DNA of 53,311 nt from Thelocarpon superellum (GCA_026025795.1 JAPEUG010000081.1:1-53311); one strand, 5' to 3'. Counted from the stretch's first letter, positions 31,380 through 37,714 are shown. Made by a program: numbers and translations. The notes: generated by a model from the sequence alone, not told the origin.

Positions 31380-33320
31380 ATGGCGTCCATCGTGAAGTTC
31401 ACCACCCTCATCTCCTCTCTCCGCGAGCACCGCTCGCTCTCTCGAAGGGTGTCCCCGTCGCGTCTGGCGGCACTCTCGACCTCGATCCCCACGGCTGCCG
31501 TCGCCCTCTCGCGAGGGCCTGACGCCGTGGTCGCCACATCTCGGACGCCCTCCAAGGGCTGGCTTTCACAGCAGCTCCTTGCGAGGACCTCCTCGTCCGA
31601 GTCCCGTGTCGACCGGGACGTTGTCGATCGAGTCGCCGCCGGCGACCTCCCGGCCCCTTCGCCTCTCTCGGCCGTCGTCGCCCTCCTGGCACGACGCGCC
31701 TGTTTCGCCGCCGCGGCTCGCGGTTCCTCGAGGTCACACGAGGACCGACGCCCGGCCGGCCCCTCCCCTCCCGCGTCCGCGACCCGCCGCTCCTCGAGGT
31801 CACACGAGGTCGGCGCCCGGACCGGATCTCCCTCTCTCGATGCACTCGATGCATTCGACCAAGCCGACTCCGCCGAGCGCGGATCCTCGCGGCCAGGCGA
31901 GGATACCAGCTCCCGGAGCGGCTCCCCCTTCCCTCTCGGTGCACTAGATGCATTCGAACCGACCGACTCCGCCGATGGCGACTCCTCACGGTCACATGAG
32001 GATAGCCCCCGGATCGGTCCCGCACTTTCGTCCGCCCCAACCGCCGGACCCGACGCGCCTGATGCCGACGTCGAGATCGACTCGAGCGATTGCAGCGCCG
32101 CGGCTTCGGCCGAGGCGTTCTCCCGGGTCGACACTCCGCCGCAGATTGCGCGCCTGCGTTCCGTCCTGGTCGATTGTAGCGCCGAGTTGCGAAACTCGGC
32201 ACTCTCCCAGGTCGGACGCAGTTCCGACGGTGCTTCGAGTCCCTGGGACTCGGAGTTGGATGGAAGCCTGGTCCAAGGACTTCCCGCCCCGATTGGCGCC
32301 ATCGCCCCGAGTTCCTCGGCGACACGCCAATCCAAGACGGAAGCACCTTGCGACCTCCTCGGCGCCCTCTTGAGGGTCGCCAACACCGAAGCCCCGGAGC
32401 AAGACCACCGTGGGCACGACATTCCATTGAGGAGTGTGCGTGTCCGGGCCTTGCTACCGACGCATTGCCCCATGCCCGAGCGGTCGACTCGCGTCGTCGT
32501 GGAGCGCATGGAGAGTCTCGCGGAGCTGTCGCCGCCAGTCGTCTCCTCCGACCGTGTCGGGGGTCACTGGCCCGGCAACTTCGCCGACTTCGGTCCCTTT
32601 GGGGCCATTTTCGCAATGCCGACGGGGCTTCAACCCGTCGCGGACGGCCCGGCACTGCCGGGACTGTTCGACGACTTTACGGCGTTCGCGCCGATCGATG
32701 GACGTCGCGAGACGGTCCTCGACGCGAGCCGTGTCGGAGACCTTCTGGTCAAGGCTCCGATGGTGGGAAGCGCGGCGACGACGGAGTCGGCTCCGATCGT
32801 CACACCGCCTCCCGCCGACCGGGCTGCAGGGATGCACGAGGCACCCGCCGCAGCCAGCTCGGCCGCCACCGCTCGATCCGCCTCCGGCGAGGTCGAGCGT
32901 CTCCCGGAGTCGCCATCGCGCGACCTCACCCCATCCACCGGCGACGATTCGAGTGCGCCCGGAGTAGGCCCTGGTGTCTACTCCGACGATCGCACGTCGT
33001 TCCCGGTCTGGTACGGACGGGAGCCGAGCAATTCGGAGGATTGGGGCTCCTTCGGCGGCGTTCCATCCCTGCGGCGCGCGTTCACTTTTGAGCGCCGCGA
33101 CCAGGGCATGGACGCCATGCGGAGGGAGATCCTTCGGCTTCACCGGCGGGTGGAGTCGAAGGACCGGGAGTTGGAGGAGAAGGAGGAGGCACTTCGGTGC
33201 AAGGACCAGGAAATCGAGCGGCTGCTCGAGGACCTGGCGTGGAAAGACGAGGAGCTGGTCTGGAAGGACGAGCTCCTGGTGGAGGTGAACGAGGAAGTCG
33301 AGCGACTCGAGAACGCCTAG
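31380..33320 (+). CDS. Intronless orphan Ser/Pro/Ala-rich protein with internal repeats and C-terminal acidic coiled coil
   Basis: Open frame 31176-33320, most plausible ATG at 31380 (MASIVKF) after a pyrimidine-rich leader. SSRSHE-type repeats. C-terminal heptads KDRELEEKEEALRCKDQEIERLLEDLAWKDEELVWKDELL. No family recognised. Confidence 0.6.
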   Translation: MASIVKFTTLISSLREHRSLSRRVSPSRLAALSTSIPTAAVALSRGPDAVVATSRTPSKGWLSQQLLARTSSSESRVDRDVVDRVAAGDLPAPSPLSAVVALLARRACFAAAARGSSRSHEDRRPAGPSPPASATRRSSRSHEVGARTGSPSLDALDAFDQADSAERGSSRPGEDTSSRSGSPFPLGALDAFEPTDSADGDSSRSHEDSPRIGPALSSAPTAGPDAPDADVEIDSSDCSAAASAEAFSRVDTPPQIARLRSVLVDCSAELRNSALSQVGRSSDGASSPWDSELDGSLVQGLPAPIGAIAPSSSATRQSKTEAPCDLLGALLRVANTEAPEQDHRGHDIPLRSVRVRALLPTHCPMPERSTRVVVERMESLAELSPPVVSSDRVGGHWPGNFADFGPFGAIFAMPTGLQPVADGPALPGLFDDFTAFAPIDGRRETVLDASRVGDLLVKAPMVGSAATTESAPIVTPPPADRAAGMHEAPAAASSAATARSASGEVERLPESPSRDLTPSTGDDSSAPGVGPGVYSDDRTSFPVWYGREPSNSEDWGSFGGVPSLRRAFTFERRDQGMDAMRREILRLHRRVESKDRELEEKEEALRCKDQEIERLLEDLAWKDEELVWKDELLVEVNEEVERLENA

Positions 33321-33414
33321 CAGCGTTCACGGAAGACTTCGGTCTTGCGCCCGTCCACGACTTTCGCCCTCGTTACCCCCGCCCCGTCCCCACGGAGCCG
33401 GCGACGAGAATCCG

Positions 33415-34061
33415 GAAGAAATTGAGGGTCGGCCAGCCGTGGCTTGCTGCGCGACCATTCTCCCTTCTCGATTCCCGCCACCAACGATCCCGACGACGCG
33501 GACGACTGGCCAGCCGTTGCTTGCTGCGCAGTCCTCCGCCATTCGGATCCCCGCTCCCCTCCTCCTCCTTTTACGACAAAGAAATTGAGGGCCGGCCAGC
33601 CGTTGCTTGCTGTGCAGCCATTCTCCCTCTGTCGTCACCCTCCCCTCCCCCCCGCCTCCCCCCGGACGATGATGGAGAAATTGAGGACTGGCCAGCCGTT
33701 GCTTGCTGCGCAGTCATTCTCCCTCCCAATTCGCCCGCTCTCCCCGGCAACGACGACGAAGAAGTTGAGGGTTGGCCAGCCGTTGCTCGCTGCGCACCTC
33801 TTCTCTCTTCGTCCCGTTGTCGGTCCCGGTGTCGACGCCGATCGCGGAGAAATTGAGGACTGGGCAGCCGTTGCTTGCTGTACGGTCATTCTCCCTTCCC
33901 GGTCGTCTCGATGCCCTCTCCCGTGTCGAAGACCTTGAGGGTTGGCCAGCCGTTGCTTGCTGCGCAACCATTCTCTCTTTGTCACATCTCGAACGTCATC
34001 CCCTGAACGCGAAGGAGTTGAGGGCCAGCCAGCCGTTGCTCGCTGCGTGGTCATTCTCCCT
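33415..34061 (+). repeat. Array 1: eight copies of a ~48-nt hairpin repeat separated by variable ~30-45-nt C-rich spacers
   Basis: Consensus GAAATTGAG-GNNNR-GC-CAGC-CGTTGCTT-GCTG-CG-YNNNC-ATTCTCCCT. Cores at 33433, 33510, 33596, 33692, 33776, 33864, 33946, 34029 (periods 77, 86, 96, 84, 88, 82, 83). Confidence 0.93.
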
Positions 34062-34298
34062 TCTCCTTCAGCCTGACGTCCTTTCTTCCAGTCGCTCTGT
34101 CGTCTGTCTTTACCGACGTCTGTCGTCTGTCGCGGTCGTCGTCCAGTCGCCTCGTCGCATATCGTTTCGTCTGCCGTCCACGATGCTCAATCATTTGATC
34201 GAACTCGGTGGCTGCGGAGTCCTACCCATCCCGGAGTATTCCGGCTTCTTGATGGTTTTGACCAATCTCTGCTCTGTCGTCCGCAAGGGACCAAGCAA

Positions 34299-35580
34299 CC
34301 AAACATCTTTCTGTCGTCCCCAAGCGACCCACCTGACATCCCGCCGGCGATCACCTCTCGAAGCCTCCTAGGCTCCTCGATCGCACGAGCAAATCTCATC
34401 GCTTTCGAGCAACCAAGCAAAACTTCCGCCGACGATCATCTCCTCGATCGCACGTGCACCCCAATCTCTTCTCTGTCGTCCACAAGCGACGGATCAAACA
34501 TCCTCCCCGGCGATCACCTTTTCGAGCTGCCCAAGCTCACGATCGCACGAGCACCGTGACCAACTCTTCTCTTCGTCGCTTTCCAGCGACTGCAAAAGCT
34601 CCTGACGTCGATCATCTCCTTGAGCACTTCCCGCTCCTCGATCGGACGCGCACTCGTGAGCAAAAATCTTTTTCCTCCTCGCTTTCCGGCGAATGTCGGG
34701 ATATCCTGCCGGCGCTCATCTCGAGCACTCCCTGCTCTCGATCGCATGTGCAACGGTGACCAATCTTCTTCTTCTTCATCGTTGTCACGTCGTCGTCGTC
34801 GTCGCATTCTTCTTTCGTCGACCGACCGGACCTCTGGCCGTCGATCGCCTCGTCAAGCTGCCCAAGCCCTCGATCGTACGCGCACTCATGACCAAACCTC
34901 TTCTCCTCGTCGCCTCTCAGCGACGAACAACTCTCTCTGCCGGCGATCACATGGAACACTCCTCGCTCCTCGATCGCACGAGCAAGTGTGACCAATCTCT
35001 TCTCCGTTGCTCCGAGCGACGCTCAAGTCCTCCCGCTGTTGATCATCTGGAGCCTCTCTTGCTCGATGATTGCACGAGCGATCGTGACCAAACCTTTATC
35101 TCTTCCTCGCTTACCAGCGACCGTACAACCCTTCCGCCGGCGATTGTCCGTTCGAGCTCTCCCCGCTCTCGGATCGCACGAGCGTCACCCTACTTCATGG
35201 TCGTAAGCAACGACGACCAATCCAATCCAATCCAAGTCCTTGTTGCCTTGCGACCACAAGCAACCTCCCCGCCGGCGATCCGATCACGAGCTCGAGCTCT
35301 CTTCGCTCCCTGATCGCACGAGCGCCAACATACGTCTCGGTCGTTAGCAACGAACGACCAAACCAAACCAAATTCCGTCGCCTGGCGACCAAAAGCAACT
35401 TCGTGCCGGCGATCATCTTCCTCGAGCAACTTTCGCTCTTCGATCGCACGGCCCTTCCTTTCTCCCTCTCGCGAGCAACTGCGACTGCAATCAATCTTCC
35501 CGCCGGCATTCACCTCCTCGAGCTCAGCCCGCTCGCTGTTTGCACGGGCGCCAACGCTCCCGTCGCCAGCGACGCAGCAA
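34299..35580 (+). repeat. Array 2: about twelve diverged ~100-nt units, each with two hairpin-forming motifs
   Basis: Unit is ACCAA..(Y-rich)..GTCGC-n-GCGAC...GCCGGCGATC..GAGC-n-GCTC..GATCGCACGAGC. GATCGCACG-like motif near 34379, 34446, 34541, 34640, 34740, 34872, 34972, 35068, 35172, 35312, 35442, 35538. Confidence 0.85.
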
Positions 35581-35604
35581 CTTCTGGCTCCTGATGGTAC
35601 TCAA

Positions 35605-37714
35605 ATGGCAGGTGAGTCAACACACCTGTCGGCCGCGCGACAGACGTCCAGTGGCACGACTGACATCATATCAGCCAAACATTTCGTCGATGATCCTACC
35701 CGGCTGGTGCGCACAGCGCTGGAGGCCGCTCCTCTCATAAACCCTTCATTAGGCCTCGACGCCGAAAACAAGATCGTCTACCGACGGGCCAAGCATGCAC
35801 CACAAGTAGCTTTGGTCTCGGGCGGAGGCTCCGGCCACGAACCTAGCTTCACGGGATTTGTCGGACATGGCCTTCTGTCAGCGGCAGTGGCAGGCTCTAT
35901 CTTCGCCAGCCCCAGTGCTGCACAGGTCCGGTCGGCCCTTCTACAGCGAGTAGACGGCCGGCAGGGTATCCTGGTCATCCTCATGAACTATACCGTGAGT
36001 GATGAACTCCTGTCACACCTGAAATTCTGCGGGCGAGAGCGCAGTCTGATCTGCGACGGCGACGATAGGGTGACGTGCTCAACTTTGGCATGGCCGTGGA
36101 AAGCGCCAAAGCAAGTGGAGCGCAGGTGGAAATGGTCGTCGTCGGCGACGACGTCGGTGTCGGGCGACGCCAGGCGGGGAAGGTCGGCCGCCGAGGCATT
36201 GCAGGCACAGTGCTGGTACACAAGATCACCGGTGCGCTGGCAAGCACGGGGTAGGGCATCGCAAGAGCAGAGGACGAGTCGGACAGGCTGACCAGGCACC
36301 TCATCAGGGCCCCCCTGGACCAGGTGCGCAACATCGCGCTGCTCACATCCCAAAACTTAGTCTCCGTCGGTGCGTCCCTCGATCGGGTCCATGTGCCTGG
36401 TCGCGCCCCTTTGGAGCCTACCTCCGACGAGACGCTGGCCACTGGTGAGGTCGAAGTGGGAATGGGCATCCATAATGAACCCGGTTCCTACCGCGCCCGC
36501 CTGGACCTACATGGCCTCGTGAAGTCGATGCTCGCCCAAATTCTGGACGATGACGAGGATCGCGCCTTTCTTCGCATCACCCCGGACGATCCCGTCGTGC
36601 TCCTGCTGAACAATCTTGGCGGAGTGAGCATGCTTGAACTTGCCGGCATCACCACCGAAGTGGTAAGCCAGTTGAGATCATCATATAGCATTAAGCCTGC
36701 GAGAATTCTCTCGGGCACCTACATGACCAGTTTGAACGGCCTCGGCTTCAGCATCACGCTCCTGAAACTCGTCGACACAGGGCTCGGCAAAGGGCAACAA
36801 CTGATCGACCTCCTAGACGCCCCCGCGGAAGCCGTGGGCTGGTCCGCACCTGTTGCTCCACAAAGCTGGGGCCAGAAAGGAGACATCGAGGAAGACACCG
36901 TGATGGGCGGCATCGATGACTACTCCAAGCCCAGCGGCTTCCGCAGTGAGCATCTCCGTACCCAGTCCGAGTCGAGACGCTGACGATTACGACAGTGGAT
37001 CCAGTAGTCGCAAAGACGGCGTTGGAATCTGCTCTGAAGCGTCTGATCCATGTAGAAGCCGACATCACGCACTACGATGACGTGGTGGGCGACGGCGACT
37101 GCGGGGTTGGACTGACGCGAGGGGCTGAAGGTGCGTGCACAGTCTCGCACGGCAGGCATGTGGCTTACAATCTTAGCCGTCTTGAGCGTCATCACGGGCG
37201 ATCAGCCGCTGTCTGACGACGCGGAGGTCGAGGTCAATCGCTGGGCTCGCATCGTGGAGACGAGCATGGACGGCACATCTGGCGCCCTCTACACGTGAGT
37301 CGGTCTGGGGGGCCCAAACGAGACGTCTACCGCTGATCACTACGCAGCATCTTCCTGCATTCGCTCGCCCATTCGCTCCGCGAGGCCGGCGAGACCGGCT
37401 TGCAGATAGGGACCGCCTTCCAGTGGGCCGAAGCTCTTCACGCTAGCCTCGCCGTGCTACGCCGCTATACCCCAGCGCACCCGGGCGACCGCACCGTGGT
37501 CGATGCCTTGCAGCCTTTCATCGAGGTACTGCAGCACACGGGTGATGTGAAGCAGGCGGCCGCTGCGGCCAAAGAGGGTGCGAGGCGAACCCAGAGCATG
37601 AGACCGAGTCTAGGCAGAAGTGTCTATGTTGGCGGGGATGGCTGGCGAGACGTGCCCGATCCGGGGGCTCATGGGTTGAGCGAGTTCCTGCTGGGATTTG
37701 CAGCCGGACTGTGA
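35605..37714 (+). CDS. DAK1: Dihydroxyacetone kinase (DhaK-DhaL fusion)
   Basis: [112 protein letters not shown] and PDPGAHG. Six introns. Confidence 0.94.

Follow-up and report, generated by a model that had tools for sequence, protein, structure and literature searches.

The copies of the Xist A-repeat and of the repeat units of NORAD are thought to act jointly as a multivalent protein-binding platform, and the intergenic spacers of ribosomal DNA contain two or more sub-repeat families in succession upstream of the transcription unit. At the level of DNA, fungal promoters are known in which tandem repeats multiply the sites of transcription factors and raise expression, an example (PMC9239056, PMC4954732) being the cyp51A promoter of Aspergillus fumigatus, with its 34- and 46-bp repeats (TR34 and TR46) containing SrbA and CCAAT-complex sites. 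Template switching in replication is reported to bring about and preserve hairpins and to mimic compensatory change (PMC8794818). To be considered here alongside these systems is an array of 12 tandem, two-hairpin units of ~100 nt in a 53,311-nt stretch of DNA from the ascomycete Thelocarpon superellum (GCA_026025795.1 JAPEUG010000081.1:1-53311; the whole stretch is referred to as the window, and positions are counted from its first letter). The array lies in front of a gene with a Dak1 domain, a dihydroxyacetone kinase gene, and its units consist of conserved, mutually complementary blocks set between variable loops and linkers. The most likely reading, although tentatively held, is that the units would be hairpin modules of a + strand transcript that serves as a multivalent platform.

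The likeness to the Xist A-repeat and NORAD units is one of arrangement, in that these RNAs (PMC2796953, PMC5742192, PMC7617650, PMC8192489) also comprise several to ~12 tandem modules in which conserved, partly hairpin-forming cores alternate with variable pyrimidine-rich spacers. They differ in being mammalian, with demonstrated transcripts and partners, whereas the array is that of an ascomycete and is known from DNA sequence alone; moreover, the array has no sequence in common with either. TR34 and TR46 are similarly head-to-tail copies just upstream of a metabolic gene in which a CCAAT-like element is multiplied, but they are two to three recent, identical copies of 34–46 bp, whereas the array is made up of 12 old, diverged copies of ~100 nt, with a block-wise conservation and a nested complementarity that set it apart from the cyp51A repeats. 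With ordinary minisatellites and template-switch hairpins (PMC8794818) the array shares its lineage-specific tandem arrangement, its polymorphism within a sample and its inverted repeats; unlike ordinary minisatellites, it diverges some four-fold less within blocks than between them and conserves unpaired elements as well. The difference from the sub-repeats of ribosomal DNA is that the spacer in question separates protein-coding genes, with no ribosomal RNA gene found by Rfam in 32000–37000.

The units were delimited with a covariance model, R1, seeded on seven units and using the structure proposed in an earlier reading of the sequence alone (the sequence-only reading), namely a 5-bp hairpin together with a 10-bp doubly bulged stem and a 4-bp inner stem, 19 pairs in all. 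Exactly 12 units are recovered by R1, all on the + strand of 34290–35549 (31.7–98.2 bits, E 4e-8 to 2e-28), including all five that were not part of the seed (units 2, 6, 10, 11 and 12; E 3e-13 to 4e-8), and the next best match on either strand of the 53,311 bases has an E of 0.41. This count agrees with the ~12 two-hairpin units of ~100 nt that had been anticipated, to which a partial unit is to be added at both ends. Small GTCGC-n-GCGAC hairpins are located at 34575, 34909, 35377 and 35562 (2-nt loop), within 1 nt of where they had been placed, and the unit alignment likewise bears out the long bulged stem, the GAGC/GCTC stem inside it and the variability of the loops and linkers. The limits first given (34299..35580) have to be widened, since the array begins ~40 nt earlier, with a partial unit from ~34255, and extends to 35603. 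The 3' arm GATCGCACGAGC occurs in 12 copies at ≤3 mismatches (34379 to 35538), and at ≤1 mismatch all seven of its window copies fall in the array, as do nine of the 12 window matches to the 5' arm GCCGGCGATC at ≤1 mismatch; a repeat search finds a 21-nt 3' block in 11 copies, 67–140 nt apart. Tandem Repeats Finder does not report the array, but only microsatellites within it, because the units average only 46% column identity.

The array is non-coding. As had been maintained, no consistent reading frame runs through it: stops occur in all six frames, and neither the unit periods nor the arm-to-arm distances (36, 18, 35, 36, 32, 35, 33, 34, 36, 41, 37 and 36 nt; modulo 3, 0, 0, 2, 0, 2, 2, 0, 1, 0, 2, 1 and 0) are held to multiples of 3. 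The longest + strand frame, of 217 amino acids (aa), matches no protein among 1952 candidates. A conserved peptide repeat, looked for within the locus, is absent, with frames that shift within and between units and stops throughout.

Along the unit, divergence is far from uniform. In the model-guided alignment of the 12 units, mean column identity is 0.93 for paired against 0.64 for unpaired columns (Mann–Whitney p = 6e-13), and the mean pairwise p-distance is 0.136 against 0.521, an approximately four-fold difference; by segment, p-distances are 0.06–0.23 in stems and 0.45–0.63 in loops and linkers. The 7-nt inner loop stands at 0.63 and its 4-nt stem halves at 0.13 and 0.06, in segments of fixed length for which the alignment is unambiguous. 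In other words, the paired segments persist while the loops and linkers vary, as the sequence-only reading had it, and the equal rates in stems and loops that would make of the array a plain, neutrally decaying minisatellite are not observed, such that this possibility is ruled out. About 55 of the 100 nt per unit are conserved, the CpG-rich arms being the best-kept parts, and the variable positions fall where the model leaves bases free; G makes up 37% of the paired residues against 9.5% of the unpaired.

Within the 3' arm, variation is greatest at a predicted bulge, column 129 (A, T, A, C, T, C, A, A, A, A, -, G over the 12 units), and bulge A126 is invariant in all 12, better kept than its paired neighbour. 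Pair 82/125, which adjoins A126, is the least conserved of the pairs; three of its four changes are from G to T, which is able to pair with A126, and C125 is changed in two of the three units with T82 and in none of the nine without it. In this regard, the claim that the variant arms at 34640 and 34872 (units 4 and 6) keep their pairing holds only when the bulge is shifted by one base, which lets the T pair with the A that had been bulged; it does not hold in the common register, where unit 4 has a T.G wobble and unit 6 a T.T mismatch. The change is a bulge shift and not a compensatory double substitution, and it represents one event at most, because both units share other derived bases (an ACGCGC tail). 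The unpaired GACCAA is present in 10 copies in the array (shuffle mean 0.35, maximum 4) and CCAAT in seven, all in one orientation (shuffle mean 1.43, maximum 5). The base after CCAA varies between units, giving GACCAAT, GACCAAA or GACCAAC, and since this T is not conserved the CCAAT box is not the conserved element. Taken as a pattern of sequence, the block-wise conservation makes a function likely, and the array is probably a selectively maintained, lineage-specific element.

If this function is exerted by hairpin modules in an RNA, then the array would be transcribed on the + strand, like both flanking genes, either as a long leader of the kinase gene or as part of a spacer transcript that also contains another array, described below. 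Each module would fold in vivo to display fixed sequence blocks on short local hairpins, that is, on the 5-bp hairpin and on the 10-bp doubly bulged stem capped by the 4-bp stem, the G-poor, pyrimidine-rich linkers would set the modules apart, and a sequence-specific RNA-binding factor would thereby be offered a multivalent platform. The 19 proposed pairs form in 93.1% of 218 cells, compared with 16.6–37.1% when the 3' partners are slid by 1–3 columns, a paired-cell value that is reached by 26 of 500 column shuffles. Relative to dinucleotide shuffles, single units fold only moderately better (mean z of −1.44 on the + and −0.53 on the − strand), with units 3, 7, 10 and 11 lying between −2.3 and −4.9. 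In whole-array folding the small hairpin has a pair probability of ≥0.69 in six of 12 units on the + strand as against two of 12 on the − strand, and when the pair span is limited to 70 nt the within-unit long stem forms in eight of the 12. Unit 12 contains a G-C to A-U double change, for which a second haplotype in one source-like read run (X1; read-run comparisons are based on assembled contigs) has G at 35508, giving G.U. If the modules are RNA, then the locus would be among very few fungal non-coding RNAs or untranslated regions with repeat domains, having two adjacent families that together number 20 hairpin modules, and a unit number that could be varied experimentally.

Several observations weigh against this RNA-level reading. 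All comparisons are made among paralogous units of one locus, and conservation across species lends it no support. The covariation score is 0.100, against 0.088 ± 0.009 in shuffles, and is reached by 66 of 500 of these; changes on both sides are found in just two of the 19 pairs, a count reached by 71 of 500 shuffles, and the RNAalifold covariation term is approximately zero. As judged from the alignment, the arms are kept as sequence and not by compensation. RNA in a + strand helix is expected to tolerate G.U and to reject A.C, and the 25 non-Watson–Crick cells consist of 10 G.U, seven A.C (three of them in degenerate unit 2) and eight others; the G.U and A.C cells being balanced (binomial p = 0.63), no strand is favoured by the mismatches. 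The folding z is above −1.4 in seven of the 12 single units, and the minimum-energy fold of the whole array holds just one of the 12 within-unit long stems, with arms that pair across units (as between units 10 and 9, whose 5' and 3' arms, respectively, pair at P = 1.0) because all 5' arms match all 3' arms. The blocks also contain palindromes, of CGATCG type, CGCCGGCG in the 5' arm and CTCGAG in the inner stem, and in the core of the long stem all but one of the six pairs are automatic, since CGATC is in both arms and CGATCG is palindromic; such palindromes would fit DNA sites for dimeric factors. Neither the 5-bp small hairpin nor the outer part of the long stem (four pairs, GCCG with CG-A-GC) is explained by them. 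Finally, upstream ATGs are not depleted in the array (seven, with 9.6 ± 2.5 expected), which makes it a poor scanned 5' leader.

A first array, of eight units, stands in the same intergenic region, and resembles the second in its strand, its tandem arrangement and its conserved cores with variable flanks. Its units align without gaps and form a long hairpin of 23 pairs, 13 of which have changed on both sides, compared with two to six in slid controls; the observed covariation score is reached by none of 500 shuffles, as against 66 of 500 in the second array, where the stems are kept as sequence. Its outer stems vary between units yet stay complementary, the variants of a 5-bp stem being GACTG/CAGTC, GGTCG/CGACC, GGTTG/CAACC and GGCCA/TGGTC, and the apical CCAGCCGTTGCT(T/C)GCTG is almost invariant. 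R1 finds no match in the first array (33392–34062), and by their sequences the two arrays are distinct, unrelated module families. Of the idea that a second structured RNA family is present, the distinctness from the first array stands, and an RNA base-pairing constraint is no more than a possibility, the covariation of the second array being at shuffle level. The second array had also been said to follow the first directly, in place of which ~190 nt of non-array spacer (34063–34254) lie between them. Nevertheless, because the first array shows compensatory covariation, the formation of hairpins, be it by RNA or by single-stranded DNA, matters in this spacer, and the prior for the second array is raised thereby, the strand and a common transcript not being fixed in the process.

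The hexamer AGCAAC is found nine times in the second array (at 34294, 34408, 35206, 35259, 35346, 35394, 35425, 35474 and 35576; shuffle mean 0.32, maximum 3), at several places within the unit, and is complementary to GTTGCT (GUUGCU) in the invariant apical loop of all eight hairpins of the first array; exact 8-nt complements of both loop variants, GUUGCUUG and GUUGCUCG, are present in the second array, and there are 12-nt inverted matches of 33779 and 34032 with 35471. This complementarity may be due to pairing of one array with the other, or to a single DNA motif present in both orientations. A wider proposal, which seems unlikely, is that a single + strand RNA would span the whole 2.3-kb spacer, as an untranslated region of great length or as an independent long non-coding RNA (lncRNA); its two repeat domains, of eight long hairpins and of 12 two-hairpin modules, would form a multivalent scaffold and may contact each other. 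Were it correct, the spacer would constitute a fungal counterpart of the mammalian repeat-domain lncRNAs, in a little-studied ascomycete lineage near lichen-associated fungi.

Of the alternatives, the one that survives best, possible if rather doubtful, is that the array acts as DNA and would control the dihydroxyacetone kinase gene as a multiplied promoter or upstream activating region, the units of which would carry palindromic or repeated putative factor sites (CGCCGGCG, CGATCG/CGATCAC, CTCGAG and GACCAA(T)) and the block complementarity of which would be a by-product of the palindromic sites. The position of the array agrees with this, directly upstream of the gene and ending 2 nt before its ATG at 35605, as do CT-rich tracts on the coding strand of the kind found in many fungal promoters and the precedent of fungal promoters in which expression is raised by repeats of factor sites (PMC9239056, PMC4954732). 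The palindromes fall within the blocks, which are kept as sequence, with neither significant covariation nor a strand-specific mismatch spectrum, but palindromes account neither for the outer four pairs of the long stem nor for the 5-bp hairpin, and the complementary blocks are nested and 20–35 nt apart, unlike the usual sites for dimers. Similarly, GACCAA (10 copies) and CCAAT (seven) exceed their shuffles and the invariant bulge A126 suggests readout of sequence, while the T after CCAA is not conserved and the ~55 of 100 nt conserved per unit extend far beyond a few sites of 6–10 bp. Nor are the true compensatory changes of the first array predicted by factor sites. If the modules do act as DNA, then the array would count as a natural promoter repeat of unusual size and age before a gene of central carbon metabolism, useful in studying how the copy number of a control module tunes expression.

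It is improbable that the array is a non-functional minisatellite whose pattern stems from mutation, in which a hairpin-prone unit has been expanded by unequal exchange, its CT-rich linkers and loops evolving fast by slippage and its arms being kept alike by template switching or hairpin-templated repair in replication. Such a history would be in keeping with a lineage-specific array, which has no other copy in the window and none among the metagenome loci listed (at least 120, with R1 run on 100), with the microsatellites (GTC)n, (CCAAT)3 and (ACCAA)3 inside linkers, with the polymorphism of the spacer within run X1 and with the symmetry of the stem mismatch spectrum (C>T 11, G>A 7). Gene-conversion tracts are much longer than 10-nt blocks. 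Adjoining segments of fixed length differ four-fold in rate (0.63 against 0.13 and 0.06) and the CpG-rich arms are the best-kept parts, all of which counts against a mutational origin; and although hairpins are reported to arise and persist through template switching (PMC8794818), arm-to-arm correction does not explain the conservation of the unpaired GACCAA and A126. A cluster of small-RNA genes (small nucleolar RNA (snoRNA)-like, microRNA (miRNA)-like or ribozyme satellite) or a decayed coding repeat is very improbable, its sole support being that the units are tandem, similar and hairpin-bearing, against which stand the short stems, the shifting frames and the lack of an Rfam match, a transfer RNA (tRNA)-like gene, a C box or an ACA box. 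Whether the array acts as RNA or as DNA, the block-wise conservation points to a constraint on sequence that is missed by Tandem Repeats Finder and absent from Rfam.

With regard to known classes of RNA, no family of Rfam 15 matches the array when both strands of 32000–37000 are searched at E ≤ 1; the lone match, to Ysr224 (19.9 bits, with a gathering score of 70), lies outside it, at 32679–32744, and is due to chance. No ribozyme family, hammerhead or other, is among the Rfam matches at this threshold, which removes a self-cleaving ribozyme satellite from consideration, and no tRNA-like gene is found. A box C/D snoRNA cluster was rejected on the basis of no C box (RTGATGA) and four scattered CTGA motifs, out of register with the units, in 34255–35604, and a box H/ACA snoRNA on that of a missing ACA box, an upper stem of just 4 bp and no Rfam H/ACA match; the bases after the long stem vary by unit (ACC, ACT, AAC, AAG, GAT, GTC, GCC). 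The stems are too short for Dicer-type, miRNA-like precursors because they do not exceed 10 bp. The full texts of two surveys of fungal structured RNAs (PMC5640933 and PMC8216456) make no mention of tandem, repeated or multi-copy elements, and among the best 20 of 180 matches in the literature on tandem repeats and stem-loops in filamentous-fungal intergenic DNA nothing alike was found, an existing description being possible.

A metagenome scan with the pattern CCGGCGATC-N18-45-GATCGCACGAGC gave at least 120 loci. Among those listed, each has one pattern match and never more than two 3'-arm motifs at ≤1 mismatch, and none has an array; over 100 of the 120, R1 gives at most one match per locus, of 17–29 bits and mostly just the long-stem half for which the pattern selects. 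The listed matches are the product of chance in GC-rich DNA.

The window itself is eukaryotic and fungal, its genes having short GT-AG introns and encoding the Pfam domains MFAP1, Ams2/SPT21, UCH, bZIP and Dak1. Its MFAP1 protein has at most 68% identity to any protein of the large collection searched, the best named matches being from lichen-associated and related ascomycetes. On these sequence comparisons, the lineage is an isolated one, without a close sequenced relative in the collections searched, and for this reason the finding is not yet generalisable. The 2.3-kb spacer lies between two + strand genes and contains, in order, the first array, ~190 nt of other sequence and the second array (Table 1). 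The upstream protein, of 646 aa, is Ser/Ala/Pro-rich, with a coiled-coil at its C-terminus, and lacks Pfam domains, and a search of proteins of similar length gives no homologue at E ≤ 0.001; the first array starts ~70 nt past the stop codon of its gene. Downstream, the kinase gene has at least one short GT-AG intron, after 35996, and an out-of-frame ATG stands 11 nt ahead of its start codon (35594–35605) and opens a frame running into the beginning of the coding region.

Table 1. Features of the intergenic spacer and the genes on either side of it.
Feature	Position	Strand	Description
Upstream orphan gene	31380..33320	+	646 aa, coiled-coil C-terminus
First array	33392..34062	+	8 units of ~85 nt, each a long hairpin; significant compensatory covariation
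Non-array spacer between both arrays	34063..34254	.	GTCGTCT-type short repeats; most AT-rich stretch of the intergenic region
Second array, whole	34255..35603	+	Partial unit 0, 12 units and partial 13th unit
Partial unit 0	34255..34289	+	GACCAATC block, CT-rich linker, small hairpin of GTCC-GCAA-GGAC type
Unit 1	34290..34390	+	cmsearch 89.4 bits
Unit 2	34396..34457	+	31.7 bits (model positions 25-104); lacks the inner stem; small hairpin disrupted
Unit 3	34458..34551	+	72.2 bits
Unit 4	34552..34651	+	92.9 bits; variant arms GACGTCGATC / GATCGGACGCGC
Unit 5	34652..34751	+	90.4 bits
Unit 6	34752..34883	+	36.8 bits (34777-34883); (GTC)n-expanded linker; variant arms GCCGTCGATC / GATCGTACGCGC
Unit 7	34884..34983	+	96.5 bits
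Unit 8	34984..35079	+	78.2 bits; four U.G/G.U wobbles
Unit 9	35080..35183	+	98.2 bits
Unit 10	35184..35323	+	48.3 bits (35219-35323); extra 6-bp hairpin 35199-35218; (CCAAT)3 run
Unit 11	35324..35453	+	57.2 bits (35350-35452); extra 7-bp hairpin 35339-35359; (ACCAA)3 run
Unit 12	35454..35549	+	36.1 bits; degenerate arms; one G-C to A-U double change
Partial 13th unit	35550..35603	+	GTCGC-CA-GCGAC hairpin 35562-35573, AGCAAC linker, 5'-arm remnant
Dihydroxyacetone kinase gene, start (Dak1 domain)	35605..36983	+	PF02733, E 4.6e-29 and 1e-36

Microsatellites have grown in the linkers of units 6, 10 and 11, as (GTC)n at 34788–34804, (CCAAT)3 at 35217–35235 and (ACCAA)3 at 35357–35372, respectively. 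The extra hairpins of units 10 and 11 are common to both units, and their loop contains AGCAAC.

Run X1, probably the source, covers the locus, and its alternative contigs, with depths of 42–62 of 176–191 (about one third), differ at 11 sites, in 33712, 34092–34161 and 35457–35535, all of them inside the spacer and none listed in the flanking coding DNA, and the main contigs of the array have a depth of 122–130 compared with ~175 in the flanks. The depths and differences suggest a ~2:1 mixture of two haplotypes or nuclei that vary in the spacer. A near-identical strain is present in a moss metagenome, in which three runs of one study contain pieces of 151–295 nt from 31500–37500, each with 0–3 differences; two of these differences are inside the array, at 34894 and 34906, and both are in a linker.

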